Source: a virus. From it: a stretch of 64,000 nucleotides of DNA. This document shows, piece by piece, positions 48,212-64,000 of this stretch (position 1 is its first letter; the number at the start of each line of letters is the position of its first letter). The stretch is from positions 27,514 to 91,513 of the IMG/VR virus record IMGVR_UViG_3300036768_001501, one strand, 5' to 3'. The translations under genes and the position numbers were made by a program. The notes beneath the pieces were generated by a model, which was not told the origin of the DNA, did no database searches, and worked only from the letters and a program-made list of their open reading frames with translations.

Positions 48212-48615
48212 CGCCTTGGCTTTGGTGCCAGAGCCAGCCAAGCGGCGTACGACAAATTGCGCAATTTTGCCGTACGCATGCGCGATAGCGGCGGTATTGT
48301 TACGCGCGATGTACTCGTCGCGGCAACCTGTATGACGTCGGGGGCAGGACCGACTTGCCCCCTCGCGCTACCGTGTACATAACAACATGCTTAGCTGCGG
48401 GTTACACCAGAACCACGCGCGATGTATTCGTCGCGGCAACCTGCGTTCCGTCACCGAGGCGTACTCGCGAAGACTCGGCTCAACTCCGCCACGGCACTTC
48501 GCTTCGCGAAGTGCGCTCCGCTACGTTGGGGCCTCGTCTTCGCTCCGTGCGCTCGCTTCGCGCAGCTAAGCATGCGCGCCCCGGTACGCGGCTAACTGCC
48601 CCGTACCGGGGCAAA
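48212..48615 (+). ncRNA. Structured retron-like ncRNA (msr/msd-like, internally duplicated)
   Basis: Perfect 14-bp inverted repeat 48386-48399 / 48561-48574 encloses two small hairpins and a ~100-nt interrupted hairpin (48455-48555). A 29-bp direct repeat sits at 48302-48330 / 48415-48443. Extra hairpins at 48246-48277, 48341-48361 and 48578-48612. Directly upstream of the RT genes. Confidence 0.75.
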
Positions 48616-48659
48616 ATCTTATATAACGCAACACAACAGAAAGGAGGAACAGTACATAT

Positions 48660-49697
48660 ATGCGAACAATCAATTTTGGGTACTGGAAAGAGGAAAATGG
48701 CCAGCGCGTGTTCGTTACCACAAGCGAGCATGCGCTTGAAGTGCAACATCAAGTAGCAGAGCGGCTGGCACTGATTGCGTACCTGCTACAGCGCTGCGGG
48801 TGCGGAATCGTAAGCGCCGTTAACTTACCAGAGCTTGGCGTGTCGGCGTACCAGATAGCATCAGAAATTGCCGTACGCGCCTGGCGCCTAAGCAAGAAGG
48901 TGGACAAACAAGACATAGTGGTTGCGCACTACAAGATGCATAACATGTACGACCAGCTCGATCTTGCAAGTGTGTACGCTACGTTAGAATTTACGGCTAA
49001 CTATTGCACGTTTGGCATAGGTATCACGAAAGATTCGCACGTTGTCGCGAAGCCGTTCAGCGACCGCAAACGCATGGAGCCATTGTGCCAGTACGTGGAC
49101 ATGCTGTACGGGATATTACGAAGGATGAATGCCAATGATCGTTGGCATGGCATTGCCTCTCAGGGCAATGAGGCTCAGTACATCATGCCGTACGATCCAC
49201 TGCGCGAGCGTTTTGTCGTTGCCGCTGGACTGCCTACGTCTCCGTACATAGCTGGCTTGTATTTTGCGTACAAAGCTTACAGCAACTTAGCGCAGTTCGC
49301 GAACGACGCTATCAATAAATCTGGAATCTTATACAATGCCGTGCACGTGCCTGGCGTGTCTGTACCAAGGAGACTTGGGTACGCGCAACGCGCATGGACG
49401 TGCGGTGACTATGGCAAAACGTACTGGAGCGAAATTTCGCAGATGCATTTCTTTCACTACGGCCAAGAGGCTGTACTGATTCATACGCGCGATAGCTGCT
49501 ACCTGCCGTTCTTCAAAGACAGTACGCTCAACTATAGGGTTAACGGGTACTTATACGGTGATTCGTTCTCGTTCTACGGAAACGAAATCACCGTAGGCAA
49601 TCCAGAAGTACGTGGCGACAATTCGCCTGTGCCAGCGTCTGCACACGTGGAGAAAGCAAAAACAGTGCTACGTACATTTGCAGTGATGGGAGATTAA
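48660..49697 (+). CDS. Catalytically inactive reverse-transcriptase paralogue (pseudo-RT)
   Basis: Colinear with the next ORF: RVFVTTSEHA/RIFVTTSEYA, YKMHNMYDQL/IDIKDCFNSL, AAGLPTSPYIA/GQGPCTSPHFA, FFHYGQEAVLI/YSRYADDILIT, RVNGY/NVCGF, KAKTVLRT/KAARVLKT. Strong SD AAGGAGG; intact ORF. Confidence 0.8.
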   Translation: MRTINFGYWKEENGQRVFVTTSEHALEVQHQVAERLALIAYLLQRCGCGIVSAVNLPELGVSAYQIASEIAVRAWRLSKKVDKQDIVVAHYKMHNMYDQLDLASVYATLEFTANYCTFGIGITKDSHVVAKPFSDRKRMEPLCQYVDMLYGILRRMNANDRWHGIASQGNEAQYIMPYDPLRERFVVAAGLPTSPYIAGLYFAYKAYSNLAQFANDAINKSGILYNAVHVPGVSVPRRLGYAQRAWTCGDYGKTYWSEISQMHFFHYGQEAVLIHTRDSCYLPFFKDSTLNYRVNGYLYGDSFSFYGNEITVGNPEVRGDNSPVPASAHVEKAKTVLRTFAVMGD

Positions 49698-49698
49698 T

Positions 49699-50796
49699 AT
49701 GCAGGATGTTGGGCACTGGACAACGATTCCCGTCGGTCGCAAGCAGCGCCGCATCTTTGTTACGACATCGGAGTACGCGCGCAAGATACAGCGCGATTTA
49801 GCATGGCGCTTGGCCGCATGGTCGTACTTCTTCAGGCACTGTTCGTGTGGCTTGTTCCGGCCTATCACCGCATATGCGCCAAAAAGCAGCGTACACGATC
49901 ACGTGCGCTTGCATATGGAATGCGCAGCGCGATGGCTCGATGCAGTCACGTACAAGATAGACATAAAGGATTGCTTCAATTCCCTGATGCCTATTGCTTT
50001 CAGGTCGTACGTGCGAGCTGTATACAGAACATTGCTCGGGTACGACTACGGACTTTCTATAAGCCAGGCAAGCGTAGTCGCACTTGGAAGTAGAAGCCTG
50101 TACGGCGGCGACAAGCTGCGTGATGCAATCTGGAGCACAATCATGAACAAGCACCATAGATTCTGGCTCAATTTCGAGTCCATCGTGAACAAGTACGGCG
50201 AGATCGAGAACAGAAAGGTTCAGGCGCTCTTCCCGTACTGCGATGACAAGCGCTTACATGTTGTTGGACAAGGCCCATGTACATCTCCGCACTTTGCTAA
50301 TATAATGCTGCTATCACTCGATTGTACCCTCATGCACAAGATACTTGACCACAAATATTCTGCCGAAGGATCCGTACATGAGATTGGGCTGTTCGGGCAA
50401 TGCGCCCACAAAAAGGCACAATTGCCTTTTGCGTACTCGCGGTACGCAGACGACATTTTAATCACCACGAGTATTGCAACGGACAAGGTGCTTGAAGCTA
50501 TCGAGTTTGCGCTTGCGCTTCACGGCCTGAAAGCCAAGTACGTCGAGCAGTACAAGCAGACAGACCGCATTAACGTCTGCGGGTTTACGTGGACGGTTGG
50601 CGAAGAAGACATCCGCCCGACGCGGCGCGTACGTAGGAGGCTACGCGCGTTGCGTCATATTCATAAAAAGTACAATGACACGAAAGGAGGGCAATTGCAA
50701 TGCTTTGAGCAATGGGCAGATGTGTACAGCGAGTCAAGGCTAGGCAGCTCGAAAGCTGCTCGGGTGCTAAAGACAATTATTGCAGCAAATGCGTAA
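49699..50796 (+). CDS. Retron-type reverse transcriptase
   Basis: Motif A KIDIKDCFNS, motif B QGPCTSPHFAN, motif C YSRYADD. Region-X-like AYAPKSSVHDHVRLH and region-Y-like VCG (cf. VTG). 365 aa with no maturase or nuclease domain. Confidence 0.9.
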   Translation: MQDVGHWTTIPVGRKQRRIFVTTSEYARKIQRDLAWRLAAWSYFFRHCSCGLFRPITAYAPKSSVHDHVRLHMECAARWLDAVTYKIDIKDCFNSLMPIAFRSYVRAVYRTLLGYDYGLSISQASVVALGSRSLYGGDKLRDAIWSTIMNKHHRFWLNFESIVNKYGEIENRKVQALFPYCDDKRLHVVGQGPCTSPHFANIMLLSLDCTLMHKILDHKYSAEGSVHEIGLFGQCAHKKAQLPFAYSRYADDILITTSIATDKVLEAIEFALALHGLKAKYVEQYKQTDRINVCGFTWTVGEEDIRPTRRVRRRLRALRHIHKKYNDTKGGQLQCFEQWADVYSESRLGSSKAARVLKTIIAANA

Positions 50797-50815
50797 GATG
50801 GAGGATACGTACGCT

Positions 50816-51949
50816 ATGCATGACCCAATGAAGGTTCTTCTTGAAGAAGCACGCAGCGGCGCGCGCGTACTGCTCGCTGGCCCACCGGCTACGGGCAAAA
50901 CTGCGCGCATTCGCGCGATTGCGAAAGAACTCGGGTACGAGTTCATTTGTACGCCGCTCCATTTGCAGGAGCGCGTTGACTTAAGCGGCGCAATTGTACC
51001 TGCTGGCGATGTTGCACGACAATTGCCGCTAGAGCTGATTGCGCGCTTGCGCAACGCCAAAAAGCCGGTACTCTGGCTGATCGACGACCTAGGAAAAGCG
51101 CCGATCGATATACAAGGCGCCCTCAAGTCGCTGATCACGCGCGCCGGCGAAGGCATGTCGCTGCCTGAACCCGTACTCGTGTGGGGCGCGACAAACCGAC
51201 CAGAAGATGCGGCTGGCGTACGCGGCCTCGATGAAGCGCTGCGAAGCGAATATGATGCCGCGTACGAAATCCAAGCGCCTATTGCGGTCGTACAAGGCGG
51301 CCAGGTGGTGGACGTTAAAATTCCCGTCCCGACCGAGCGCGGTACCGTGCCACTTGCGCCGTGGGAAGATGAAGTGGAAAACTGGTGCATGTGGGCACTA
51401 GATTATGCACGCCAGCTCGAAACAACCGATCCGCAGCGTGCGTACTGGGCCGCGCAAGTCGTGGCATTCCACCGTGTAACACGCGGCGAATGGTTGTACC
51501 GCTGGCATCACGTGCAGAATCCCGCAGAACGGTTCCCTGATTTCCGCTCGTGGCATGCTGTTATGAAGCTTCCGGAGCCGCTGCAGAAGTACGAGCCGAT
51601 TGCTGCCCGCATTGGCCATCCGGCAACTGCTGCATTCATTTCGGTACGCGAAGACATCACCAGCATGCCAACGCTAGACGAAATTCTCGCATCGCCGCAA
51701 ACAGCGCCTGTTCCAGGCGAAGGAAGTACTGCGGCAATGTACTTGCTCGCAACGCTAATTGCGATTTGGGCATCTCTCGATAACTTGCGTCACTTGATTC
51801 CGTACGTTGAGCGATTGCCGCGACAATTTGCTGCGCTTGCTGCCAAAGGCATCGCGCGCAAGTTTAAGGATAACGTTGACAAGCTTGTTGCGGTCGAACG
51901 ATGGAACAAGTTTGTTGACCGCAACAGCGACCTGTTCGACATCGAGTAG
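50816..51949 (+). CDS. MoxR/dynein-related AAA+ ATPase
   Basis: Walker A GPPATGKT, Walker B WLIDD, sensor GATNR; SD GGAGGA at 50800. Confidence 0.88.
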   Translation: MHDPMKVLLEEARSGARVLLAGPPATGKTARIRAIAKELGYEFICTPLHLQERVDLSGAIVPAGDVARQLPLELIARLRNAKKPVLWLIDDLGKAPIDIQGALKSLITRAGEGMSLPEPVLVWGATNRPEDAAGVRGLDEALRSEYDAAYEIQAPIAVVQGGQVVDVKIPVPTERGTVPLAPWEDEVENWCMWALDYARQLETTDPQRAYWAAQVVAFHRVTRGEWLYRWHHVQNPAERFPDFRSWHAVMKLPEPLQKYEPIAARIGHPATAAFISVREDITSMPTLDEILASPQTAPVPGEGSTAAMYLLATLIAIWASLDNLRHLIPYVERLPRQFAALAAKGIARKFKDNVDKLVAVERWNKFVDRNSDLFDIE

Positions 51950-51977
51950 CGTACAAACCGTTAGGGAGGTTATCTAT

Positions 51978-52727
51978 ATGGCACTAGAAGCAAAAAACTT
52001 CGTACTCGCGCGACCGCACGTTACCGTGTGGAACCCGATGGTCACCGACCACGAGCTAACGCGCGTCATCACGGAAACCACAACGATCCCGAACCAAGAG
52101 CGCGTACGCGCAATGCGCTCGTTGCGACAAATCGATTCGCACAAAAAGCTCATTGCGCTGCGTACGGAAGCCTTCACCAAATTTAACACGCGCACGTGGC
52201 CATGCGAATTCCGTGGGTTCCGCATCGCCAACGTAGTGGTTGTACCAGAATTGCGCGACATCATTGCTGACATACAACCGCGATTCCAAACAGCGCTCGA
52301 TGCGTTCTTGCAGGAGTACGAGGGCGCACGCCGACGTGGCGTCATCTCGCCAATCTGGCCGAGCGCAAACGCAGTACGCGACAAATTCTATTGCGAAGCG
52401 CAATTCTTGCCGATTCCGGCTGATAGGGAATGGCAAACGTGGTTCATGAACATGCGCGCAATGCATCTGGAGTACTTCCGGCAGCGCATTCTAGAGGCGC
52501 TTGATGATGCCGTACGCCGCTTGACGGTCAAAGGCGGCAAGCGCAAGACGGTTGCGCGCGTACTTGCAAGCGCGCTTAAGATGGCGGCGGATATTGAGCT
52601 ACCGCCAGAGCTAAGCAAGCTCGTACAAGAGCTAGATACCGTGGCCGACGCGGCCAAGAGCGCACCAGAACAGCAGCTATCTAAGATTGACATGCTCGCG
52701 GCACGAGTACGTGCAATCGCAGGATAA
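51978..52727 (+). CDS. DUF3150-like protein
   Basis: VTVW...TD, TWP...GFR, F...Y...WPS...VRDKF...LPIP pattern; SD GGAGGT; usual neighbour of phage AAA/vWA genes. Confidence 0.6.
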   Translation: MALEAKNFVLARPHVTVWNPMVTDHELTRVITETTTIPNQERVRAMRSLRQIDSHKKLIALRTEAFTKFNTRTWPCEFRGFRIANVVVVPELRDIIADIQPRFQTALDAFLQEYEGARRRGVISPIWPSANAVRDKFYCEAQFLPIPADREWQTWFMNMRAMHLEYFRQRILEALDDAVRRLTVKGGKRKTVARVLASALKMAADIELPPELSKLVQELDTVADAAKSAPEQQLSKIDMLAARVRAIAG

Positions 52728-52751
52728 CATTCTAACTAGTTAGGGGAAATC

Positions 52752-54476
52752 ATGCGTAAGCCAAACAAGCAAGAGTCGCGCCGCTTAGAGCGCGTTCTCT
52801 TCAAGCTATTATCGCATCCACGTACGGCAGCGATCGTTGGTTCTGTCGCTGGCGAATTACGTACGCGTCCATCCAATAAAGCCGATGGTTCGCGTGCATT
52901 CGAGTACTATGTCGTTGATGTCGGTATGGACAAGTTTATCGCTTCCGCTGACGAGAATTTTCGTATCGTACTCGGCTCGGAGTTCCTCCAGAAGGCTAGC
53001 ATCGAAGAATTGAAGTACGTGCTCGTGCACGAATGCACGCACATTGCAATGGGTCACTTGTGGCGTCTCTGGAAACATGCTCAAATTGATGAGCGCGCCT
53101 TCTTTATCGCAGTTGATTATGAAGTTTACCGGGTACTCAAGCCGCTGCATGACCAAGGTGTGATTCGCGAACCGGACGGAACGTGCGTACCGAAAGCGCT
53201 CGAAACTCCAGATTGGGCCTGGAATTTGTCCGCTGAAGAAATCTGGCGACGCTTACGCAAGCAAGCGCAAACGCCAAGCCCGCTGCAAGTACTTGCGCAT
53301 TCGAGCGGCCAAAGCAGAGACGAAAAGCAAGGCTTTGGCGATCACGAGAATGAAGATTCTGAAGTACCCGTAGACGAAGCGGGCGAGTACGGGCAACACG
53401 ATTGCGATAGCGAGGGCAATGTTTCTAAGGGTGACCCGCGTCGCAATCGTACCAGTACGCCAGGCGGCAGGACGCCAAGCGAACAAGCCAAGAGCGGCAA
53501 AGGCAATAACAACAATGAATGCGACGACGTTGCAAGTACGCCAGGTGGAAAAGACCCACAAAAGCAATCAAACCAAGCCGCAGATGGGTACGGAGATGAT
53601 GGCAACGGCGAAGAAGACGGCGACAATCAAAGTGGCGGCGCGTCCGAAGACTTGCTTGACGAGCTTGCGAAAATTGCACGCAGGCTTGGCCTGCAGCCGT
53701 GTACGTCACAGCAGAGCGCTGAAAATATGCGCCAGTTTGTTGAAGGCGCATTACAGCGCCATGCAATCTTAATCAAGATCGCAGAAGATAAGTCAGGCCA
53801 AGCGCAAGGGCCAAACGGCGGCAACGTACAAGATTTCTTGCAGCTCAATGTACGTGCGCCGGTTCATAACTGGCAAGATGAGCTGCGCGAATTCGTACAG
53901 ACGAACATTATTCGCCGCCCAGACTGGATGCGCCCAGCTAAGCAAACATGGGCAACGGGCGTGTACACGCCACGGCGTCAACGCTACGTACCAGGCACGC
54001 TTGTGATTTGCCGTGATACTTCCGGTTCTATGCAAGTGAAAGAGTTCGATCATATTGCAAGCGAGCTGAAAGATATTTTCGATATAGCTGCATGCGAAAA
54101 CATACAGCTATTGGCAATCGACGGCGACACGCGCGTTACGCAGACATTTATTATCGATAGCGCAAGCGTACTTGAGCAATGGCTGCGTGCACCAAAAGGA
54201 CGTGGCGGCACTGAATACGACCAGTTCATGGAGTACGTAAAGCAATTGCGTAACGGCGACGTTGAAGAATCCGCCATGCTGGAGGGCGATATATGCGGTA
54301 TGATTCTTTGTACCGACTTGGAAGTGTCACAACGCACAATCGATGCGCTTGAACCGCCGGAAGACATTCCGCTGATCTTCATGTACGTCGGTCACCGGAA
54401 AGAAATTCCAGTGGACGTTACGGCAAAAGGCAAGCTCATTAATGTTACTGCAGCGGTACGCGCTAAGAATGCTTAG
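52752..54476 (+). CDS. DUF2201-type metallopeptidase (HExxH) + vWA domain protein
   Basis: LVHECTH, an acidic/Gly-rich linker, MIDAS DTSGS, GRGGT and CTD. Confidence 0.88.
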   Translation: MRKPNKQESRRLERVLFKLLSHPRTAAIVGSVAGELRTRPSNKADGSRAFEYYVVDVGMDKFIASADENFRIVLGSEFLQKASIEELKYVLVHECTHIAMGHLWRLWKHAQIDERAFFIAVDYEVYRVLKPLHDQGVIREPDGTCVPKALETPDWAWNLSAEEIWRRLRKQAQTPSPLQVLAHSSGQSRDEKQGFGDHENEDSEVPVDEAGEYGQHDCDSEGNVSKGDPRRNRTSTPGGRTPSEQAKSGKGNNNNECDDVASTPGGKDPQKQSNQAADGYGDDGNGEEDGDNQSGGASEDLLDELAKIARRLGLQPCTSQQSAENMRQFVEGALQRHAILIKIAEDKSGQAQGPNGGNVQDFLQLNVRAPVHNWQDELREFVQTNIIRRPDWMRPAKQTWATGVYTPRRQRYVPGTLVICRDTSGSMQVKEFDHIASELKDIFDIAACENIQLLAIDGDTRVTQTFIIDSASVLEQWLRAPKGRGGTEYDQFMEYVKQLRNGDVEESAMLEGDICGMILCTDLEVSQRTIDALEPPEDIPLIFMYVGHRKEIPVDVTAKGKLINVTAAVRAKNA

Positions 54477-54478
54477 CG

Positions 54479-54654
54479 CAGTATACATATAAGCCCACGT
54501 ACAGCCGAAACGACAGAACAGTATACATATATTGCGCAGATACGCGTACGGGTACAGGCGCTCCGCGCCTAAAAGTACCCAGGGAGGGCTGGAAATGACG
54601 CGGTGCGTTAATGTCGGTCTTTTCGAGTTTTGACAAAATTCGCGCTGCTACCTT
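54479..54654 (+). promoter_or_regulatory. Regulatory region: two CAGTATACATATA boxes (40 bp apart), the shared 16-mer and a putative extended -10
   Basis: Boxes at 54479-54491 and 54519-54531; AATGTCGGTCTTTTCG at 54610-54625; TGcTACCTT at 54646-54654. Confidence 0.6.
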
Positions 54655-54660
54655 TAGAAG

Positions 54661-54808
54661 CGGCCCATCGGGACCAGCCTCGGCGTACACGCCGGTCGTA
54701 CGCCGAGGACCGTAGGTGGCCGGCAACCGCGGTACGCATACCGCGCGTGCGTACTGCGGGAGGTAATGTGCGCGGAACGCGGGGCGAACGCGGTAAGTCG
54801 CGTTCCGC
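54661..54808 (+). ncRNA. Three-hairpin structured leader or small RNA
   Basis: Stems 54678-54688/54698-54708, 54727-54739/54747-54759 (with G-U pairs) and 54772-54781/54799-54808. Confidence 0.55.
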
Positions 54809-54830
54809 TAGTAGCCCCGAAGGAGGTTAT

Positions 54831-55625
54831 ATGGGTACCAAAACGCGACGTGGTCGACGTGGTGGGCGGCGTGTGCAGGCCGCCCGCGCGCTCGCGGCGT
54901 ACATGGCCGCTGAGCGCGGCGTGAAAAAGGTACCGCCGCTCGTGGTACGCATGCGGGCGGCGGCAATGGAGCTCGCGCGAAGTCGCGCGCTGGAAGTACT
55001 CGGCGAAAAGCCGAGCGTAGATCCGCGCCGCGCGTACGACGCAACGTACGTGCGGCAACAGCGCGCGAAGGCCGCGCGCTGGGAGGCCGCGTACAAAGAA
55101 GCGGTCTCCCGCTTCTACCCACGCGCTCTCGTTGAGATCGAGCGCGATTTGAGCGCCAGCGTGTACGAGGCGCTCAATTACGATCGTGCCCTCCCGCGCG
55201 TCTTCGGCGAGATCGCGTGCGGGATTCGCGCGATGGCGTACGGCATCCGCGCCTTCGCTGACGCGATTGGCGCGGCAGTACGTCGCCAGCGCGAGGCGCG
55301 TCGCATTGCGGCTGCGCGCCGCGTACAGCGGCAGCGCGCTACCGAAAACCGCCTGTGGTGGGAAAGCTACAAGCGGCATATTGGCGTACGGGACGAAGAG
55401 CTTGTGGACAAGCTCTTCGAGGCGCTCGAAAAGACGAGCGCCGATGACGCGCATGAGATGCGTACGCAAGCTCGCGCGGCGTACGCTATCGGCCAAGCGC
55501 TGTTCACGTTGGGCAGCGCGCTTGGCATGACGGCCAAGCGTCGCGTGTTCAACGCGAAGGCCGCGCTCGAAGTACTCGATCGTTACGCGCAGCTCCCCGG
55601 CGCGTACGTGATGGGCGACGAGTAA
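54831..55625 (+). CDS. Arg/Ala-rich helical protein with an N-terminal arginine-rich motif
   Basis: SD AGGAGG at 54821; MGTKTRRGRRGGRRVQAAR. Confidence 0.8.
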   Translation: MGTKTRRGRRGGRRVQAARALAAYMAAERGVKKVPPLVVRMRAAAMELARSRALEVLGEKPSVDPRRAYDATYVRQQRAKAARWEAAYKEAVSRFYPRALVEIERDLSASVYEALNYDRALPRVFGEIACGIRAMAYGIRAFADAIGAAVRRQREARRIAAARRVQRQRATENRLWWESYKRHIGVRDEELVDKLFEALEKTSADDAHEMRTQARAAYAIGQALFTLGSALGMTAKRRVFNAKAALEVLDRYAQLPGAYVMGDE

Positions 55626-55665
55626 CGCCCGTCACGTCGCGCTACGTAGTTGCGCGCCATGTCAT

Positions 55666-55698
55666 AAGCCCCACGGCGCCCGCCGTGGGGCTTTTTTT
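55666..55698 (+). terminator. Rho-independent terminator
   Basis: AAGCCCCACGGCG / CGCCGTGGGGCTT followed by T7. Confidence 0.9.
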
Positions 55699-55709
55699 GG
55701 CGTACAGGT

Positions 55710-56362: not shown

Positions 56363-56364
56363 TC

Positions 56365-57095: not shown

Positions 57096-57107
57096 GAGGT
57101 AGCGCAT

Positions 57108-57533
57108 ATGAAACGTACAAAGAAGCGCTATGTTTTCTGTGCCGCTACAGGCAACGAGCCTAGCGGCCTCGCGGAGCATATCCGCGACGAGTACTTCCGC
57201 GCCGACCGTCCGGATGGCGCGACGTACGACGTTATCGCGGTCGCGCAAAGCGATAACGTCGATCGGTCCCGCGTACAATTCGATTGGGACCTCTTCGTGT
57301 ACGGCGAAGAGGCCGTGATCGATTTCGTGCGCGAAGACGTTGCGCGTGAAGAGCGCGATGAGATCGTCGCGTACGTCATCCTTGACGGATGGACAAATCC
57401 GCGACTGCTCATCACGCTCGTACAAGCGATGGAAGCGCGCGGCATCCCGTTTGCTGCGTACGACTTGCGCTGCTTGCCCAACCAGTTCCTCTGGGTGTAC
57501 TGGGGGTTCGAGCCCACGTACAACCCGGAGTGA
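57108..57533 (+). CDS. Hypothetical protein, paralogue pair member 1
   Basis: SD GGAGGT; AYVILDGWT...L..L..A motif. Confidence 0.7.
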   Translation: MKRTKKRYVFCAATGNEPSGLAEHIRDEYFRADRPDGATYDVIAVAQSDNVDRSRVQFDWDLFVYGEEAVIDFVREDVAREERDEIVAYVILDGWTNPRLLITLVQAMEARGIPFAAYDLRCLPNQFLWVYWGFEPTYNPE

Positions 57534-57544
57534 GCGGTACGCGC

Positions 57545-57967
57545 ATGTCGGACATTAAGCGCGATCGCGATCGGCTGACGCTGGTCTTCGTACCGGTACG
57601 TGACGAGCGAGACCAGCGATTCGCAAAGCTGCTACAGCTTTGCGTAGAACCGTTCAACGCCCACGACCACCTATTTGTGGGCGTTGTACAAGGTGCGCGC
57701 AACGACGTTTTGTTGCGCGAGTTCGACGACAACGAGCGCGAGTACCTGGACGTGGTACTCAGCACTGACATGCTCCGCGCGTTCGTATTCGGGCATGTGA
57801 ATAAAAACCCGAAGGGTGAACGCATGGACGCGTACGTGCTCGTGGACAACTGGACGGACGCGTACGCGCTAACCATCCTTCTCCGCGCGCTTGTAGAAAG
57901 CTGCGCGAAGTTCGGTGTGTTCGAGTTCGATGACGGATCGACACACCAGGCTTGGGTACGCCGATGA
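57545..57967 (+). CDS. Hypothetical protein, paralogue pair member 2
   Basis: AYVLVDNWT...L..L..A motif shared with the previous gene. Confidence 0.65.
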   Translation: MSDIKRDRDRLTLVFVPVRDERDQRFAKLLQLCVEPFNAHDHLFVGVVQGARNDVLLREFDDNEREYLDVVLSTDMLRAFVFGHVNKNPKGERMDAYVLVDNWTDAYALTILLRALVESCAKFGVFEFDDGSTHQAWVRR

Positions 57968-58371
57968 ACCACTTCTACCGCGTACTTATCCGCCACGAGG
58001 GGGGCCTGTACTCCCCCCTCGTGGCGTTCGATTCGCCGCTCAGCGTAGCGCACGAGCCACTTAAGTGGGCACGTACGCCGCAAGCGGCAGAAGTGCACGG
58101 TTACTACATTACCGTGTACGAAAACCTGGCGCAAGCGCGCCAGCTCTGGTCGAACCTGACTGCGTACGAGGTTCGACCAGAGTTCATGCAGGCGTACGAG
58201 ATTTGGGCCTGCGAGGCGCGCGGCATTGCGCGCCATCTGCCACCGCCCGTCAACCCGTACGACATCGACAAAGGGTTGATCGGGCCTGCGTACGCGCGCC
58301 CTGGTGCGCCGTACTGGATGGACGGCACGCTAATGGCGCGCGAAGTACGTCCGATAAAGTCCGTGTACTAG
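57964..58371 (+). CDS. Expanded ~140-aa family, copy 1
   Basis: FYRV...W...GY.ITVY...EIW.CEA.G...W.DGTLMA..VR. Confidence 0.75.
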   Translation: MNHFYRVLIRHEGGLYSPLVAFDSPLSVAHEPLKWARTPQAAEVHGYYITVYENLAQARQLWSNLTAYEVRPEFMQAYEIWACEARGIARHLPPPVNPYDIDKGLIGPAYARPGAPYWMDGTLMAREVRPIKSVY

Positions 58372-58383
58372 GAGGGTGTTATT

Positions 58384-58965
58384 GTGAAGTGTTTCACGGC
58401 GTTCACAGATAGCGCGGCTGAAGGCATTGCCGTTCAGCGCGAACCGTACGAGCACGTGTTCTTGGGGTACACGCGACCTAGTCGCAAGCTGGTACGTATC
58501 CCGATCGACATGCGATTGTCGGTACACGTATGCGGTGACGTTGTGTACAACGCTACCGTGTTGCGTGTGGAAAACGGTCCGCTCTTCTTGACCGAAGAGC
58601 AGGATCCGAACGACACGCGCGCACTCGTACTCGTGCGCATTCATGGGAATCGATTTGGAGTGCGGTACGAGCTGCCGCGCGAAAACTGGTTGTACGTGGA
58701 CAAGAAACTGGTCTGGTTCCCGCCAGACGGTACGGAGATGGCGGGGGTGCTACCGTTGGCATCCGCGTACACGGTGCACTATGAAGGCCGCAAGCGCATT
58801 CCGTACGAGACCAAGCTTGTGGTCCTCGAAAAGGACGCACAATTCATTGTGACCCGTCCGTGTACGTCGTGTGGCGCGCTACGTTCGCGCATCGTGACGT
58901 GGGACGGTACGCAAGTGAAAGTGCGTACATGGTCACAATTGCACAAGGAGGAGTGTGGTCAATGA
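58384..58965 (+). CDS. Hypothetical phage protein
   Basis: SD GGAGG, GTG start; interrupts the paralogue array. Confidence 0.7.
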   Translation: MKCFTAFTDSAAEGIAVQREPYEHVFLGYTRPSRKLVRIPIDMRLSVHVCGDVVYNATVLRVENGPLFLTEEQDPNDTRALVLVRIHGNRFGVRYELPRENWLYVDKKLVWFPPDGTEMAGVLPLASAYTVHYEGRKRIPYETKLVVLEKDAQFIVTRPCTSCGALRSRIVTWDGTQVKVRTWSQLHKEECGQ

Positions 58966-59414
58966 ATGACGGCAAATTGTACAAAATTGTACGCAGACTG
59001 CACGCGCTGACTGAAGCGCGCATGTCGCTCATAGTACCCGAGAGCTCACCTATCATAGCGTACTATGAGCCAAATCGGTGGACGAAGGCGAAACCGGAAG
59101 CCCTGCATCGCGGCTACGGGTTGTTCGTGTACCGCGACCTCGACGCCGCGCTCGACTTCATGCGCTTCGTTCTTGACGCGTACAAAGACGCGGAGGCGCG
59201 CTTCCGCGTCAACCGTGAGGCCTCGTACTCAAGATACGAGCTCTGGGAAGTGCTTGGCATGGGTACGTGGCCCACGATCCACGTCAAGCCACTGGACGCA
59301 GAGGCTATTTGCAAAGGCATTCTGCACCCGAAGTACGCAATCGCGGAAGAGTTTCCCGATGCGCCGTACATCCTCATGGCGCAAGCGGTGAAACTCGTAC
59401 GCCGCGTAGTATGA
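58962..59414 (+). CDS. Expanded ~140-aa family, copy 2
   Basis: LYKIVR...YEPNRW...GYGLFVY...ELWEV...LMAQAVKL. Confidence 0.75.
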   Translation: MNDGKLYKIVRRLHALTEARMSLIVPESSPIIAYYEPNRWTKAKPEALHRGYGLFVYRDLDAALDFMRFVLDAYKDAEARFRVNREASYSRYELWEVLGMGTWPTIHVKPLDAEAICKGILHPKYAIAEEFPDAPYILMAQAVKLVRRVV

Positions 59415-59427
59415 AGTAGGAGGTGCC

Positions 59428-59799
59428 GTGAGGTACTATAAGGTTGTTCTACGCTACCCAAACCAGGATTCGCGATACTCCGTGTTCAAGTACCACGGAA
59501 AGCGCGTGGAATACCGTATTCGGCGCGTAACTGTCGCGCCGTACGAAAACCTGTACAAAACGGGTTGCAAGTTGTTCATCTTTGACAACTTGCGTACCGC
59601 ACGCGAGTGGGCGGAAAGATGGCAACGCTGCAAGCCGCTTGTCAGTATGCCAGGAGAAGCGCTAGAAGTGTGGCGTGTACTGGCGGTTGATGTTTGTACT
59701 ATACCGCCTGACATTCAGCAATTCGCGCCATTACATACGCTTATGGCCGGCTATGTAGTACTCCATAAGCGTATTTGCGAAGTACCGCTATTTGTATAA
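59428..59799 (+). CDS. Expanded ~140-aa family, copy 3
   Basis: YYKVV...G.KLFIF...EVWRV...TLMA. Confidence 0.75.
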   Translation: MRYYKVVLRYPNQDSRYSVFKYHGKRVEYRIRRVTVAPYENLYKTGCKLFIFDNLRTAREWAERWQRCKPLVSMPGEALEVWRVLAVDVCTIPPDIQQFAPLHTLMAGYVVLHKRICEVPLFV

Positions 59800-59800
59800 G

Positions 59801-60169
59801 ATGAGCGAGTACTATAAAGTAGTACGCCTGTTCGAGGACGGCGTACGCGGATCGGCCATCGTGGCACGGGATTGCAACCTGTTTCACGAGTACGTGCCAA
59901 GTACATGGGTACACGCGCGCCCAAATGCGCTCAAGTTTGGGCTATTCGTGTTTACGTCATGCAAAGCGGCACTAGAATTCGCCCATACAATGGGCGCGGG
60001 TTCCAACATCGTGTACGAGATTTGGCGCGTGGACGCAGAGGGCGTACGCCCACTGCCAATGGCGGACACGCTATCAGATAACCCAAGTCAGCGCATGGTT
60101 GACGCGCTGATTATGCGTGAGTGCGTTCGCCGCGTACCGCGTGGATACTGCGACAAAACGTTTGTGTAG
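59801..60169 (+). CDS. Expanded ~140-aa family, copy 4
   Basis: YYKVVR...YVP..W...FGLFVF...EIWRV; recent duplicate of copy 5. Confidence 0.75.
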   Translation: MSEYYKVVRLFEDGVRGSAIVARDCNLFHEYVPSTWVHARPNALKFGLFVFTSCKAALEFAHTMGAGSNIVYEIWRVDAEGVRPLPMADTLSDNPSQRMVDALIMRECVRRVPRGYCDKTFV

Positions 60170-60177
60170 GAACGCAC

Positions 60178-60519
60178 ATGTCCGAGTACTTCAAAGTCGT
60201 ACGCCTGTTCGAGGACGGCGTACGCGGGTCTGCTATTACGCCGCGCGAAAGCGCCTTTTTCCACCACTACGTACCAGGCGAATGGGTGCGCGTGCGGCAA
60301 AACCCGTTCAAGTACGGGTTATTTGTCTTCACTAGCTACGACGTGGCGCTGGAGTTCGCCATCGAAATGCGCATGGAACCTGGTACACTGTACGAGATTT
60401 GGCGCGTTGACGTTGAGGACCCGCGTCCGTTGCCAACGGCAGATGAGCTAACGGACAATCCGAGCGTACGCATGGTAGACGCGCTGATTATGCGCGAGTG
60501 CGTTCGCCGCGTACCGTAG
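60178..60519 (+). CDS. Expanded ~140-aa family, copy 5
   Basis: Near-identical N- and C-termini to copy 4. Confidence 0.75.
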   Translation: MSEYFKVVRLFEDGVRGSAITPRESAFFHHYVPGEWVRVRQNPFKYGLFVFTSYDVALEFAIEMRMEPGTLYEIWRVDVEDPRPLPTADELTDNPSVRMVDALIMRECVRRVP

Positions 60520-60527
60520 GAGTTGCA

Positions 60528-60980
60528 ATGGCAAAACAACGTTCTGCGCGCACAGTGTACAAGGTTGTGCGCAAGTACGGAAGCCGCCTGGTGTCGCTGT
60601 ATTTTAATGCGTCCGAAGCGCCAGGCGTGGAGTACGTGCCTAGCGAATGGGCACATGCACCAGATGTTATGCACAAGTACAAGTACGGACTATGCGTGTT
60701 TGGCACGCTTGAAGATGTGTTCCTGTTCACGTTCCGGAAAAGTACCGACAAGTCGCCACGTGACTTGCAAGTTTGGGAATGCGAAGCCCTTGGCGTACGC
60801 AAGCCGCGCGTAAAGCGCTTGTCGATCGGCGACGTAGTCCCAGTTGCTTTGGGTGAGGTACACATATCCAAAGCGATGCAAGACGAGTGGCCGACCGGTA
60901 CGCTGCATGCGGACGCGGTACGCCTCATGAAGCCAATACCGTGGGACAAGGTCAAGAACGAGCATAAGGTGGTGTACTAA
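60528..60980 (+). CDS. Expanded ~140-aa family, copy 6
   Basis: VYKVVR...YGLCVF...QVWECEA.GVR...WPTGTL.A.AVRL. Confidence 0.8.
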   Translation: MAKQRSARTVYKVVRKYGSRLVSLYFNASEAPGVEYVPSEWAHAPDVMHKYKYGLCVFGTLEDVFLFTFRKSTDKSPRDLQVWECEALGVRKPRVKRLSIGDVVPVALGEVHISKAMQDEWPTGTLHADAVRLMKPIPWDKVKNEHKVVY

Positions 60981-60981
60981 A

Positions 60982-61428
60982 ATGAGACAACGCCTAAAAA
61001 CCGTGTACAAGATTGTGCGCACCGACACCGGTGGTAGCGCGCTTGCGTCTATATCGTTCATGTTCTCAGAGCCGGCGTGCACGCGGTACACACCGCAAAA
61101 ATGGGTACGCGCTCCGAAGGTTATGCGTAAGCGCGGATATGACCTATGCGTGTTCGACTCGCTTGAGAGCGTACACGATTTTATCAATTGGGACCAGTAC
61201 CACCCGCCGTGCAGCTGGCAGGTCTGGAAATGCGACGCCATTGGCGTACGCAAGCCGGTCGCAAACCGATTGTTCACGGATTACGTTACTAGCTTCGTAC
61301 TAGGCGAGCTAGGCGCGGAAGAAATTCGATTTCACGCCTGGCCGACCGGTACGCTATTTGCGACGGCTGTTCGACTGATCGAGCCGGTACCGTGGGATAC
61401 GGTCAGGAATGCCGTACGGGGGGAATAA
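60982..61428 (+). CDS. Expanded ~140-aa family, copy 7
   Basis: Same motif set as copy 6. Confidence 0.8.
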   Translation: MRQRLKTVYKIVRTDTGGSALASISFMFSEPACTRYTPQKWVRAPKVMRKRGYDLCVFDSLESVHDFINWDQYHPPCSWQVWKCDAIGVRKPVANRLFTDYVTSFVLGELGAEEIRFHAWPTGTLFATAVRLIEPVPWDTVRNAVRGE

Positions 61429-61429
61429 T

Positions 61430-61879
61430 ATGCGCAAAAAGAATTTAGCGTACAAGGTTGTCAACGTCGAGCGCGGCAAGTTAACGTCGCTGTCGTTCCG
61501 TCTCGGGGACCCAGCGTGCGTTATCTATAAGCCGCAGGAATGGGTACGCGCGCCATTAGCGATGCGCAAGCGCGGGTACTGGTTGTACGTATTCGCAGAC
61601 CTGGCCGACGTACGAAAGTTCTTCCTGATGGACAAGTTCGCCATCGCGAAGGAGGCGTACAACATTGAGCTGTGGGAATGCGAAACGCTCGATTTGTACG
61701 TACCCCTAGCAAGCCGGCTGGACGTGGTAGACGTCAATATGCTTACAGCCGGTACGCTACGCAAGCCGCGCGGCTGGTACCGAAGCTGGCCGGACGGCAC
61801 GCTCATGGCACGTGCTATCCGCCTGACAAAGCCAGTACCATGGGAAACGCTAGATAACCTGCCAGAGGTGGTGTACTGA
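61430..61879 (+). CDS. Expanded ~140-aa family, copy 8
   Basis: Same motif set as copy 6. Confidence 0.8.
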   Translation: MRKKNLAYKVVNVERGKLTSLSFRLGDPACVIYKPQEWVRAPLAMRKRGYWLYVFADLADVRKFFLMDKFAIAKEAYNIELWECETLDLYVPLASRLDVVDVNMLTAGTLRKPRGWYRSWPDGTLMARAIRLTKPVPWETLDNLPEVVY

Positions 61880-61880
61880 A

Positions 61881-62318
61881 ATGAAACACTGTTCTATCCC
61901 AACCCCACTCGTACAGGCGTACAAGATCGTGCGCTACACGCCATTTGGCGAATTTACATCGCTGGCATTACCCATGTTCCGCTATATGCATACCAAGTAC
62001 GTGCTCGGAAAATGGGTGTACGCGCAGCCTCCAATGACCGAACACGGGTACGGGCTGTGCATATTCAGAACGATCCGTCACGCCTGCGAATACCTAGACC
62101 TGACTGTAGGGCCGGTACGCGGCTGGCAGTTATGGCGCTGCGAAGCTATAAACGTACGCGCAGACCTGCCACCACCCCTGTACACAGCACATGACGCCTC
62201 GGGCAACCCAGACTTCAGCCAGATATATGAGTACCCGTGGCCGACAGGAACGTTAATGGCAGACGCTGTACGCCTAATCGAACATATCCCGTGGAAAGAG
62301 GCATTCCGTCATGCGTAA
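61881..62318 (+). CDS. Expanded ~140-aa family, copy 9
   Basis: Same motif set as copy 6. Confidence 0.8.
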   Translation: MKHCSIPTPLVQAYKIVRYTPFGEFTSLALPMFRYMHTKYVLGKWVYAQPPMTEHGYGLCIFRTIRHACEYLDLTVGPVRGWQLWRCEAINVRADLPPPLYTAHDASGNPDFSQIYEYPWPTGTLMADAVRLIEHIPWKEAFRHA

Positions 62319-62742
62319 ACGATCCCCAAAACAATTCTACAAGATCGTACGCCGCTTGAACAACAACGAGCGCGTTTCCCTGTTTGTACCGCTATCCTCC
62401 TACCATTGCGTGATATACGAGCCAGGTAAAATCGCGTACGCTGATCCAGTCATGCGCAAGCGTAAATATGGCTTGTGCATCTTCGAGGATATGGAGCACG
62501 TACGCGAATACCTGTGCTCGATTACCAGACCGGCACTAGAACCGTCTATCGAGGTGTGGCGGTGTACTGCATGGGGCGTGTACAAACGCCTGCCAAGACA
62601 ACTAGATTGGGGCTATGTAGACGCAGGCGTTTTCAACCCGCCCGCGGTACGCATACCGTGGCCAGAAGGCACACGCATGGCGCATGCGGTGCGCCTCGAT
62701 GAGATAGTTGGTACCTACTATAATATAGTGAAGGGGTACTAA
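62311..62742 (+). CDS. Expanded ~140-aa family, copy 10
   Basis: Same motif set as copy 6. Confidence 0.8.
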   Translation: MRKRSPKQFYKIVRRLNNNERVSLFVPLSSYHCVIYEPGKIAYADPVMRKRKYGLCIFEDMEHVREYLCSITRPALEPSIEVWRCTAWGVYKRLPRQLDWGYVDAGVFNPPAVRIPWPEGTRMAHAVRLDEIVGTYYNIVKGY

Positions 62743-62948
62743 GCATGCATCAGCATGTAGATAGCAGCATGCGGCACGTGTGCATAGGTAGCGCGGGCGT
62801 GCGTACAGATAACGGCGGCGCAGGCGTGCGTACGGGCAAGAACAGCAAGCAGGACGGCAAACAACACGGCCAGCATGACGGTGTGCTGATGGGGGGATAC
62901 GGTACCCGTACCTCCCCCGCGTACGCCCCTTATCTTGCATTTTTGCAT
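62739..62948 (-). CDS. Possible small hydrophobic peptide, antisense to the early operon
   Basis: Strong SD AGGAGG-N9-ATG on the minus strand; VMLAVLFAVLLAVLA segment. Confidence 0.35.
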   Translation of the reverse strand: MQKCKIRGVRGGGTGTVSPHQHTVMLAVLFAVLLAVLARTHACAAVICTHARATYAHVPHAAIYMLMHA

Positions 62949-62989
62949 ATAAGGTTCCTCCTGCGCCACGGCCCGCGCCGCGTACAGCG

Positions 62990-63230
62990 TGTGCGTATCC
63001 GGGCTGTGGTTGATGGAGGTAGCGACGTACTGCGTGCTGTGGCTAGTGCTATGGGCGCGTTGCAGATAGCGTACCCGGGCATGGGTAACGCTATAGAGCG
63101 GGCTGTTACGCAGCTATGGCGTACCGGCAGTGCGTATGCCTGGTTCGATAACGGGCTGGTACTGGTGCGTAGCAAGGGCCTGTCGTCCACGCGCAGGTGC
63201 AAGATCAGCGTGCATGTATTGTGCGCGTAG
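62990..63230 (+). CDS. Small hypothetical protein (start uncertain)
   Basis: The stop at 63230 is followed immediately by a terminator. Confidence 0.4.
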
Positions 63231-63235
63231 CATGC

Positions 63236-63271
63236 ATACCGCTGGGGTTTCGGCCCCAGCGGTATTTTTTT
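63236..63271 (+). terminator. Rho-independent terminator
   Basis: ATACCGCTGGGG-tTTCGg-CCCCAGCGGTAT followed by a T tract. Confidence 0.9.
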
Positions 63272-63790
63272 GTCCTCTGGCTGCGTACGCGGTACGCGTA
63301 TGGTATCAAACGATCGGGCAGTATATGCGCGCAAATGACGGTGTACGGCGTACTCGGCGCGGGGCGCATATAAGCAACCAGGGTGTCCGGCTTGTGGCTG
63401 GCTGGTGTGTCTATGCTCTGGTTTGCATAGCGTGTTTGCATAGTGCGTTTGCCTAGCGTGTATGGCCTAGCCGGCCTGCGTACTATATGAGCGGATGGCG
63501 TGGGTAGCGTTTCTTTGCGTACACCAAATTCTGGTTACGGGCCACAAAAGTGGGTGTACGCGGTGTGGCAATTATTCATATAGTACGCGCTTTCTGTCCT
63601 AGTGTCACAAAATTGCCACACCATAGTTGCCTTGACACGTGCTTATGTAGCATGGCTGTCAAAAACCCTGTACGCACAGCGCTGATAAGTCGCAAAAGGT
63701 GGTGTACGCACTTTGGGTGCGTGGCAAGAAAATGACGCTGCGTACATGGTTGATGTGTATCATTTTGGTACACACCGTCTGTCCGGCTGC

Positions 63791-64000
63791 GGCAGTATCG
63801 GCATAGTACTGACGGTTTGCTGCGTACGCGGTACGCAGGCTATGTTTCTGGCAGTATAGGCAAGATCGTGACGGTGTACGGCGTACAAAGGGGCCGGCTG
63901 CGACAGTATGTACGCGGCTAACGACGCGGCAGTATGTACGCGGCGGCGATGATGTACGGCGTACAACCGGCGGGACCCGGCAGTATGTACGCGGCGGCGA
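63791..64000 (+). repeat. Degenerate ~26-bp-period repeat array (CAGTATGTACGCGGC / TGTACGGCGTACAA), cut by the window end
   Basis: CAGTAT at 63793, 63852, 63904, 63930 and 63981; TGTACGGCGTACAA at 63875 and 63953. Confidence 0.75.

Follow-up and report, generated by a model that had tools for sequence, protein, structure and literature searches.

Clusters of the 4-bp palindrome GATC at oriC and the dnaA promoter of Escherichia coli are methylated by Dam and read by SeqA. The phage locus described here resembles them in the local high density of a 4-bp palindromic word (GTAC) and, if that word is methylated and bound as hypothesized below, in a special protein-bound state of one DNA segment. 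The SeqA clusters span a few hundred base pairs with sites one to three helical turns apart, whereas the GTAC-dense arm covers 16 kb with a site about every 49 bp. Phage genomes normally lose short palindromes, as these are targets of host nucleases, and GTAC is a common target of restriction-modification systems (RsaI, HpyAXII, and PabI). Avoidance of restriction sites and palindromes has been described for phages (e.g., PMC6286503) and in HF1-group haloviruses (PMC7230728), and GTAC is named as the target in a report on HpyAXII (PMC2588503). The arm concerns the same class of words with the opposite sign, GTAC being enriched 5.5-fold.

Also close to this pattern are HIP1 (GCGATCGC) and the alternate iterated palindromes of cyanobacteria (PMC4390886), in which, as in the arm, a short palindrome occurs far above expectation in coding and noncoding DNA and in any reading frame. 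Iterated palindromes have been linked to cognate methyltransferases, and a repair-based model was proposed for HIP1 in a study that mentions neither GTAC nor phages (Elhai 2015, PMC4390886). A link to an orphan methyltransferase is suspected for both HIP1 and the GTAC of the arm. The arm shares with HIP1-type palindromes the many-fold excess, the independence of frame, and the presence in genes and spacers, but its excess is not replicon-wide (20.6 GTAC per kb in the arm versus 3 to 5.4 per kb elsewhere). HIP1 is an 8-mer distributed over whole chromosomes at about 1 per kb, whereas the 4-bp core of the arm recurs once per 49 bp with even spacing, stays within a single 16-kb operon block of a phage, and adjoins a depleted flank.

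Size, limits, and evenness of the GTAC excess

The window, the whole stretch of DNA analyzed, comprises 64,000 nucleotides of the 91.5-kb contig of an uncultured phage, and the results refer to this one metagenomic lineage. Positions 48241 to 64000, referred to here as the arm (not assigned to a strand), hold 324 copies of GTAC with a mean gap of 49 bp, corresponding to an observed/expected ratio of about 5.4 to 5.5 on base composition and 1.45 under a maximal-order Markov model. GTAC is the most overrepresented of all 256 4-mers in the arm, and the runners-up (TACG and CGTA) are words that overlap it. The sequence-only reading of this DNA had reported a regional excess from hand counts, which were reproduced exactly (11 GTAC in 57961 to 58380, 10 in 63781 to 64000, and 2 in 15001 to 15420); the excess is confirmed and is stronger than first reported. 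In the rest of the contig the observed/expected ratio is 0.8 to 1.4. Counts per 2 kb run from 6 to 15 up to position 44000, fall to 1 to 2 in 44001 to 48000, and reach 31 to 50 from 48001 to 64000, while the other 27.5 kb of the contig beyond the window carry 1 to 10 GTAC per kb. By gene class, the ratio is 0.76 to 0.85 in the replication clusters, 1.40 in the late genes, and 5.47 in the arm.

The left edge of the arm is sharp, with the last ordinary GTAC at 47140 and the first dense one at 48247. The adjoining GTAC-poor flank (43815 to 48246, likewise without strand) contains 3 sites in about 4.4 kb. Its 3.9-kb part from 43815 to 47700 consists of replication genes purged of GTAC and shows the avoidance usual for phages (observed/expected ratio, 0.20; Poisson P of about 2e-6 at rest-of-genome density, for a region picked after seeing the data), and the 540-bp regulatory gap that follows (47701 to 48240) has zero GTAC. 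The right edge lies out of view, as the contig stops within repeats at 64000, and the GTAC-dense arm probably extends past this point.

The arm has a GC content of 0.56, versus 0.50 elsewhere, and its codon usage also differs. A by-product of codon or amino acid usage is nonetheless ruled out as the source of the excess, which outlives codon-preserving shuffles: synonymous shuffling within genes left about 144 to 145 ± 8 GTAC versus the 300 observed (z, 19.6), and re-encoding with the arm's own codon usage gave 136 ± 9. The excess is also specific to GTAC, every other 4-mer reaching a z of 7.9 or less in the same shuffles. The two findings that could have dissolved the earlier observation, an explanation by usage and a lack of specificity, were thus not obtained. 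The word is used at 289 of the 435 arm positions where it is synonymously possible (66%), compared with 25% in late genes, and the share of opportunities taken is high in all three frames (0.60/0.63/0.76 in the arm versus 0.13/0.29/0.30 in late genes). The possible positions are themselves denser in the arm (29.4 versus 21.2 per kb). Sites fall into the three frames as 104/48/137, with another 35 in intergenic DNA, in agreement with the previously claimed variety of frames and intergenic locations. Noncoding DNA of the arm is equally GTAC-dense (19 to 29 per kb), and some sites depend on lineage-specific residues, i.e., amino acid changes that create GTAC.

The sites are also evenly spaced, a result that adds to the sequence-only reading. 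The coefficient of variation (CV) of the gaps in the arm is 0.575, versus 0.99 when sites are placed at random (minimum of 0.80 in 2,000 trials) and 0.88 when they are drawn at random from the possible positions (minimum of 0.74), and the largest gap is 180 bp versus about 305 bp expected. Evenness holds within each coding sub-block (CV, 0.46 to 0.54), while the other 21 frequent 4-mers of the arm (0.83 to 1.22) and GTAC in the rest of the genome (1.06) have higher values. As a result, for 95% of the bases in the arm the nearest GTAC is no more than 42 bp away, and the regular spacing implies a range of action of roughly 40 to 50 bp for each site. Pair distances hinted at a 6.4/12.8-bp periodicity, which was rejected for lack of significance against gap-shuffled controls (P = 0.13 to 0.79). 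Helical phasing of the arm sites was not found: a 10.5-bp period is absent, and the strongest period at short range (6.4 bp) did not reach significance (P = 0.13). Frame-independent use, equal noncoding density, site-creating amino acid changes, and even spacing together uphold the earlier proposal that the motif is positively selected. They show that selection on the DNA or RNA itself, not codon usage, maintains the GTAC of the arm, and that about one GTAC per 49 bp has been kept in this way over a minimum of 15.8 kb of operons on one strand.

Organization of the arm and form of the word

All features of the arm located here lie on the plus strand. Just upstream, at 47971 to 48082, a promoter- or operator-like motif, (G)GCAGTATACGCGGCA, is present in three tandem copies 41 bp apart (repeat family D11). 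A noncoding leader follows (48245 to 48612; 8 GTAC in 419 bp), with hairpins at 48245-48256/48266-48277 and 48578-48592/48598-48612. The first operon (48660 to 54476) carries 13 to 19 GTAC per kb in each gene and encodes two paralogous RT-like proteins (48660 to 49697 and 49699 to 50796), an AAA ATPase (50780 to 51949), a 306-amino-acid protein (51807 to 52727), and a DUF2201 metallopeptidase/VWA protein (52752 to 54476). In the intergenic stretch downstream (54478 to 54759), two further copies of the motif (GCAGTATAC/ACAGTATAC) at 54478 and 54518 are accompanied by hairpins at 54678/54698 and 54727/54748; these two and the two of the leader are the four hairpins noted at the outset, and all are present with GTAC in both arms. 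An intrinsic-terminator-like hairpin with a T run lies at 55666 to 55700. The tandem array at 57952 to 62742 (24 GTAC per kb) consists of about 10 diverged paralogues of roughly 125 to 185 amino acids with 25 to 69% identity. The copies retain their number of sites, with some positions conserved (5 of 9 at 71% nucleotide identity) and others turned over. A strong intrinsic-terminator-like hairpin with a T run (63236 to 63272) ends the second operon block. Beyond it, a noncoding repeat region (63273 to 64000; families D4 and D13) comprises at least 4 units of GCAGTAT(A/G) followed by a GTACnnnGTAC mini-hairpin; it counts 22 GTAC in 770 bp, includes sites between the terminator and the next promoter-like motif (63285 and 63292), and is where the assembly breaks (joint 64000>63340).

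The dense zone begins about 110 to 260 bp downstream of the promoter-like elements, and the operons of the arm are all on the same strand and directed towards the contig end. This orientation does not support the earlier designation of the arm as early, first-injected DNA, as the classical first-injected early regions (T7, T5, and N4) have another operon layout. The suggestion that GTAC seeds the recombination driving the gene array is disfavored: nonarray genes carry 17 to 22 GTAC per kb versus 24 in the array, the paralogues share only 25 to 69% protein identity, and a word of 4 bp does not provide enough length for homology.

The flanks of GTAC are reverse-complement symmetric, with C at −1 (0.44) matching G at +4 (0.47) and the extended half-sites GCGTAC and GTACGC occurring 83 and 73 times, respectively. 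CGTACG has 60 copies in the arm, only 12 of the 324 sites have the form AGTACT, and the information content falls to background beyond ±3 nucleotides. An oriented motif of the Chi or KOPS type was rejected because the core is a palindrome and the half-sites are symmetric. Dispersed or tandem repeat elements (REP/MITE-like or recent duplications) were rejected as well, as GTAC does not lie inside longer conserved units; the only repeat families found are the diverged paralogues and a few regulatory units. Purine-pyrimidine alternation of the Z-DNA type fails after masking of GTAC ±2 nucleotides, with ACAC, CACA, GTGT, and TGTG at 0.47 to 0.93 and CGCG and GCGC alone remaining high (2.5 to 3.1).

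Relatives and candidate readers

Searches for relatives included blastn comparisons with 50,697 phage records, in which neither the arm nor the giant gene had a match, and scans of viral contigs with single proteins (the AAA ATPase and a 413-amino-acid protein), which found none; an Atlas look-up of the 413-amino-acid protein returned only matches scoring 0.83 or less. The paralogue family of the array has no relative in the viral contigs. A search with the 16-nucleotide promoter-like motif produced 3 chance-level matches in which GTAC is normal, and CGTACGNNNNNCGTACG, searched as a pattern in the genome of the phage itself, gave no match. Relatives at 55 to 97% identity exist for the AAA and methyltransferase proteins, and those of the terminase reach only 28 to 36%. 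The host is not assignable by RecA because the phage RecA is 62 to 69% identical to the RecA of many phyla. Among the 40 strain differences listed, 2 fall in GTAC versus 3.3 expected, numbers too small for statistical power.

Judged from its sequence, an orphan D12-class N6-adenine DNA methyltransferase (39612 to 40454, minus strand) is the only recognizable candidate for a GTAC-specific enzyme. It scores 61 bits versus a Dam-family cutoff of 115, and its best PDB match has 27 bits; as only a distant D12/Dam-family member its specificity is not readable from sequence, and, being far below the cutoff, its site need not be GATC. The identification of PDB entry 7m6b as the GTWWAC enzyme M.BceJIV was dropped as wrong or unsupported, since the enzyme in the paper belongs to the beta class and 7m6b is not cited there, and the Bas51 methyltransferase, which methylates GATC (PMC12548924), is irrelevant as a parallel. 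Pfam and PHROGs scans of about 60 open reading frames recognized no nuclease, RNase, or DNA-binding family able to read GTAC.

Possible functions of the array

Our preferred reading of the arm is a coverage array of double-stranded DNA sites for a GTAC-specific binding or methylating protein, which would mark the operon block as a separate domain, and we give it a probability of about 40%. Double-stranded GTAC would be read by a specific, probably dimeric, protein: either the phage's orphan adenine methyltransferase with a reader of its mark, or a nonenzymatic binder spreading a short distance from each site. A methyl mark, one of the possibilities raised in the sequence-only reading, has no range by itself, so that even spacing would then need an additional spreading reader. 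The block might in this way enter a chromatin-like state unlike the rest of the genome, for example, for joint switch-off of its operons or for shielding. Reading of the double strand is suggested by the palindrome, the symmetric flanks, and the sites between the terminator and the promoter-like motif, and the sharp switch at 48247 beside the depleted flank (0.2) is a domain boundary that counts for a coverage array. The start of the dense zone downstream of promoter-like elements and the same-strand units fit a role at the RNA level equally well, and DNA- and RNA-level roles can be told apart inside the arm only on the roughly 100 bp that are probably untranscribed.

At the RNA level, GUAC would serve as an endoribonuclease cleavage site giving mRNAs a short programmed life, much as T4 RegB cleaves early mRNAs at GGAG, or as a binding or structural element coating long transcripts. 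Every site in the same-strand operons is also a GUAC on mRNA, and GTAC density does vary by gene class. Folding is also more stable for the arm than for dinucleotide-shuffled sequences (mean z of −1.66 versus −0.48 in late genes), with 48% of the paired GTAC bases in predicted folds pairing with another GTAC, but any self-complementary word, when repeated, automatically brings such stability with it. We regard a role in RNA as unlikely, given that an RNA motif does not require symmetric flanks, that sites also lie in terminator-to-promoter spacers, that one site per 49 nucleotides far exceeds the need for inactivating 400-nucleotide cistrons, and that no RNase-like gene was recognized among the scanned open reading frames. 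A mechanical or topological role, in which evenly spaced TA-step hinges would make a bendable segment for spooling the last-packaged DNA or provide gyrase G-segment sites in heavily transcribed operons, would account for the even spacing through a uniform-bending requirement and suits an arm at the contig end. The TA step within GTAC was the single most deformable step in a studied minicircle, at the gyrase G-segment center (PMC13284261), and, in contrast to CTAG and TTAA, GTAC read directly is free of stop codons in every frame of both strands. Enrichment does not, however, extend to other words with flexible TA or CA steps (TATA, 1.1; ATAT, 1.4; CATG, 1.4; TGCA, 1.4; CTAG, 0.5; TTAA, 0.5), helical phasing is absent, and the contig end need not be the physical genome end, which leaves this role quite improbable.

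Nonadaptive origins fare slightly worse. A methylation-linked, very-short-patch-like repair bias converting near-matches to GTAC would follow the repair model of Elhai (2015, PMC4390886), and import from a GTAC-rich donor would agree with the differing GC content and codon usage of the arm. Neither predicts even spacing or an abrupt edge that coincides with an operon boundary and adjoins a depleted flank, and depletion of the one-mutation neighbors of GTAC is no stronger in the arm than outside it (e.g., ATAC/GTAT, 0.81 versus 0.82). The 108 loci examined included neither a GTAC-rich relative nor a GTAC-rich bacterial locus: homologous AAA-X-VWA modules in 28 other phage loci have observed/expected ratios of 0 to 1.24, and in 80 bacterial loci from many phyla the word is underrepresented (median, 0.49; maximum, 0.89). 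The bacterial values are also the available comparison for the earlier idea that GTAC might mimic an iterated palindrome of the host. The background 4-mer signature of the arm, computed without GTA/TAC words, matches the rest of the genome (r = 0.76, versus 0.64 or less with unrelated phage loci). This shared signature also opposes an assembly chimera, in which an arm from a different organism was wrongly joined to the phage contig. The metagenomic origin of the contig, its compositional step at 48.2 kb, and the lack of any public-run contig spanning the junction among the matches listed would allow such an error. Read depth, however, is continuous over 46 to 49 kb and covaries between two runs (about 15 to 19 and then 16 to 18 in X1; about 6 to 10 and then 7 to 12 in X2), copies of the GCAGTATAC motif lie within the arm as well as immediately left of the boundary, and the arm has a typical phage AAA-X-VWA module, so a chimera is highly improbable. 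Because the background signature and the read depth are common to the whole genome and the homologues lack the excess, we infer that the arm evolved in place.

Under the coverage-array reading, GTAC may tentatively be seen as a regional address code, a possibility we hold with considerable doubt, its sites recurring about every five helical turns for at least 16 kb next to a purged buffer zone, so that the block would be silenced, shielded, or timed as a unit. To our knowledge, there is no phage example of a domain marked by site density instead of discrete operators. With GTAC near saturation, at two-thirds of the positions that the proteins permit and in one operon block only, the arm is a clear, measurable signature of a DNA or RNA reader and, with 324 sites in 16 kb, a concrete test bed. 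If such a reader exists, the arm would show a virus setting apart a whole gene block by sequence density, and it could throw light on HIP1 and other iterated palindromes, a puzzle of long standing.

GTAC density and spacing in the arm

The 91,513-bp record is linear, the window being its bases 27514 to 91513. Its completeness is estimated at ∼90% (CheckV), and the assembly falls short of a complete genome at the far end of the arm, the GTAC-dense block at the contig end (window 48241-64000). The contig represents a tailed phage, a single metagenomic lineage from microbial mats, whose DNA is present in two runs from two studies. Minus-strand replication genes (bacterial-type RecA, DnaB-like helicase, and primase; contig 1-10 kb) come first. 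An extended block on the plus strand follows, with primase-polymerase, SbcCD-like nuclease, terminase, portal, and structural genes (among them those for proteins of 3907 and 1695 aa), then a further replication block on the minus strand (sliding clamp, exonuclease, D12 methyltransferase, and SNF2 helicase; window 35.2-47.7 kb), and the arm, whose genes all lie on the plus strand up to the contig end (48.2-64.0 kb). The RecA gene (contig 604-1632, minus strand) is full-length and bacterial-type (Pfam RecA, 445 bits); its product is 62-69% identical to the RecA proteins of Desulfobacterota, Zixibacteria, Acidobacteriota, and Clostridia, among others, and so does not point clearly to a host. A 413-aa protein encoded divergently from the arm (46456-47697, minus strand) matches no family, and its weak likeness (0.83, language-model look-up) to Deltex C-terminal (ADP-ribose-binding) domains falls below the level of evidence.

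The arm contains 324 GTAC in 15.8 kb (20.6 per kb), an observed/expected ratio of 5.47, compared with 1.40 in the plus-strand late block and 0.85 and 0.76 in the two replication blocks. The ratio is 0.20 in the 3.9 kb adjoining the arm, and a 540-bp regulatory gap has no GTAC at all. GTAC ranks first among the 256 4-mers in the arm, followed by the overlapping TACG and CGTA or by CGCG/GCGC, and it is equally frequent in noncoding arm DNA, where the 419-bp leader carries 8 sites and the final 770 bp carry 22. A sequence-only reading had claimed such a regional surplus from three hand counts, which we reproduced exactly, and the hairpins that it named are real. With GTAC masked, CGCG and GCGC remain 2.5- to 3-fold high in the arm (1.2 and 1.9 elsewhere); together with the GC content (0.56) and CpG observed/expected ratio (1.44 versus 1.06), this is a second, milder compositional trait of the arm.

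The core of the motif is GTAC itself, with a weak symmetric bias in its flanks, toward (G)C 5′ and G(C) 3′ of the core (in the arm, 83 copies of GCGTAC, 73 of GTACGC, 60 of CGTACG, and 17 of GCGTACGC). Information content reaches background past ±3 nt, and AGTACT makes up only 12 of the arm sites. General purine-pyrimidine alternation was rejected as the target, as CA/TG-type alternating words are not enriched once GTAC is masked.

The even spacing of GTAC is a new finding of this analysis. Gaps between adjacent arm sites average 48.7 bp with a coefficient of variation (CV) of 0.575, whereas random placement gives 0.99 (minimum of 0.80 across 2000 trials). Close pairs are scarce (47 gaps of <20 bp versus 109 expected), as are long gaps (longest, 180 bp versus ∼305 expected), and a GTAC is no more than 41.5 bp away from 95% of arm bases. 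Random draws of as many sites from the 435 positions at which the encoded protein permits GTAC by synonymous codon choice (possible positions) still give a CV of 0.88 (minimum, 0.74), and saturation is therefore not the cause of the evenness. Of the 22 four-letter words that number at least 120 in the arm, only GTAC is even; the others have a CV of 0.83 to 1.22, with CGCG and GCGC, about as numerous as GTAC, being clustered (1.17 to 1.22). GTAC beyond the arm has a CV of 1.06. The evenness is present in every coding sub-block (0.46 to 0.54) and is weaker in the noncoding tail (0.85), where GTACnnnGTAC mini-hairpins occur. An apparent 6.4/12.8-bp periodicity was not significant.

Codon usage and the level of selection

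Codon usage, which the sequence-only reading had named as a factor to be controlled, does not account for the surplus. When synonymous codons were permuted within each of 24 plus-strand arm genes, 144 ± 8 GTAC were obtained against the 300 observed; shuffling codon order gave 105 ± 8, and re-encoding gave 82 ± 8 with late-gene codon usage and 136 ± 9 with that of the arm. The same shuffles applied to all 4-mers bear out the suggested specificity for GTAC (z = 19.6; CGTA, 7.9; GCGC/CGCG, 6.8). Possible positions are denser in the arm than in late genes (29.4 versus 21.2 per kb), Tyr, Val, and Arg being more frequent there, and GTAC occupies 289 of the 435 (66%) versus 25% in late genes. This holds across reading frames, the used share being 0.60, 0.63, and 0.76 in the arm and 0.13, 0.29, and 0.30 in late genes. 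Of the 18 GTAC in the AAA ATPase gene, most coincide with residue pairs that homologues share (V-L, G-Y, C-T, and L-Y), and 4 or 5 rest on residues unique to this lineage. TAC accounts for 84% of Tyr codons in the arm and GTA for 34% of Val codons. Collectively, the shuffles, the use of all frames, the lineage-specific residues, and the dense noncoding DNA show that selection acts on the nucleic acid, with codon usage (TAC and GTA) dragged along.

Architecture and gene content of the arm

A (G)GCAGTATACGCGGCA motif occurs in spacers, always on the plus strand, with three copies at 47971-48082 spaced 41 bp apart and further copies at 54478, at 54518, and at least six times in 63318-63980. In the form (G)GCAGTATAC/GTACGCGG, the motif recurs at 47971-48082, 54478-54530, and 63309-64000, its units near the contig end being joined to the GTACnnnGTAC mini-hairpin. 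These copies are probably the promoters or operators of the arm; sigma-70-type promoters are not conspicuous (12 versus 10.5 expected). Together with strong terminator-like hairpins at 55666-55700 and 63236-63272, they divide the arm into three or more transcription units on one strand. The third breaks off at the contig end, within its repeat units, and one public-run contig runs on from 64000 back into a copy like that at 63340.

Two adjacent reverse transcriptase (RT)-like paralogues (48660-50796) share 26% identity. The second has weak, below-cut-off matches to RVT_1 and a retron St85 RT model, while for the first there is no family match. Both lie ahead of an AAA/306-aa protein/DUF2201-VWA module that often occurs in phages lacking an RT. 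For the ∼10-copy array of diverged paralogues at 57952-62742, a confident AlphaFold model of the 60982-61428 product (pLDDT, 88.8; pTM, 0.84) weakly matches mostly ADP-ribosyltransferase-fold proteins (Arr, Z of 4.8; MbcT, 4.7; RES, Tre, and ParT toxins, pertussis S1, Scabin, and DarT, 2.6 to 4.2), with uncharacterised BC2332 as the top match (Z of 6.5); Z values below 8 may reflect just a common arrangement. Minus-strand open reading frames of 195 to 274 aa lie over arm genes at 56802-57425, 57412-58236, and 60690-61277, and are probably by-products of the GC-rich, palindrome-rich composition rather than genes.

The arm varies in gene content within the population. In both public runs, contigs reveal strain variants with deletions or replacements inside it: in 55253-59135, one contig skips 3564 bp (55570 to 59135), 628 bp are skipped from 58349 to 58978, and repeat number changes by 26 to 63 bp near 63900 (63902-63966). 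Single-base differences number ∼1500.

Origin and possible role of the surplus

The surplus evolved in place, on several lines of evidence. The AAA/306-aa/DUF2201-VWA trio occurs at 28 viral or metagenomic loci (30 to 57% identity) with GTAC observed/expected ratios of 0 to 1.24, and no substitute over-represented word was seen there. The arm shares its 4-mer signature (GTA- and TAC-containing words excluded) with the rest of the genome (r = 0.76, within the 0.53 to 0.89 found between chunks of that rest) more than with 26 unrelated phage loci (r ≤ 0.64), and read depth is unbroken across the arm boundary in both runs; an assembly chimera is highly improbable. A nonadaptive origin, by repair drive or import, is also improbable. 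Special depletion of one-mutation GTAC neighbours was not seen in the arm, so directed repair drive has left no footprint, and among 80 bacterial loci (1.38 Mb, many phyla) the median GTAC ratio is 0.49, with at most 16 sites per 2 kb versus 31 to 50 in the arm. The closest paralogue pair (71% nucleotide identity) has 5 of 9 GTAC in common versus ∼2.3 expected under neutral decay, and the unshared sites are replaced nearby, which keeps 9 per copy.

Because the flanks are symmetric and some sites lie in spacers that are probably untranscribed, we tentatively favor (probability of about 0.4) a GTAC-specific protein that would read the sites on double-stranded DNA. It is unlikely that GUAC is instead read on the same-strand transcripts: the arm folds more stably than shuffles (z of −1.66 versus −0.48) and GTAC has another GTAC as its pairing partner in 48% of cases, but both are expected from any repeated self-complementary word. 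A mechanical hinge or gyrase-site role is more doubtful, marginally less so than the nonadaptive origin; the TA step in GTAC is described as the most deformable of the minicircle studied (PMC13284261), but other flexible words are not enriched and helical phasing is absent.

Among known phenomena, the closest is HIP1, a highly iterated palindrome, with its alternates, which are tied to orphan methyltransferases and unexplained (PMC4390886). Like the arm GTAC they are frame-independent; unlike it, they are 8-mers spread genome-wide at a density of ∼1 per kb, and neither GTAC nor phages appear in that paper (PMC4390886). Full-text searches of a paper library found no account of evenly spaced 4-mer sites confined to one region of a phage genome. 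As a working analogy for a methylation word that is dense in one place, the GATC clusters to which SeqA responds come closest. For the arm, the sole candidate enzyme would be the orphan D12 methyltransferase, whose low scores (61 bits versus the Dam cut-off of 115; 24 to 27 bits against solved Dam-type enzymes) mean that neither GATC specificity can be assumed nor GTAC specificity claimed.

Even spacing with few close pairs and no long gaps is the pattern that selection for coverage yields: each GTAC has to have a range of some tens of base pairs, so that a second nearby site adds little and an uncovered stretch is costly. Under reading on double-stranded DNA, the GTAC-purged flank would look like a boundary.
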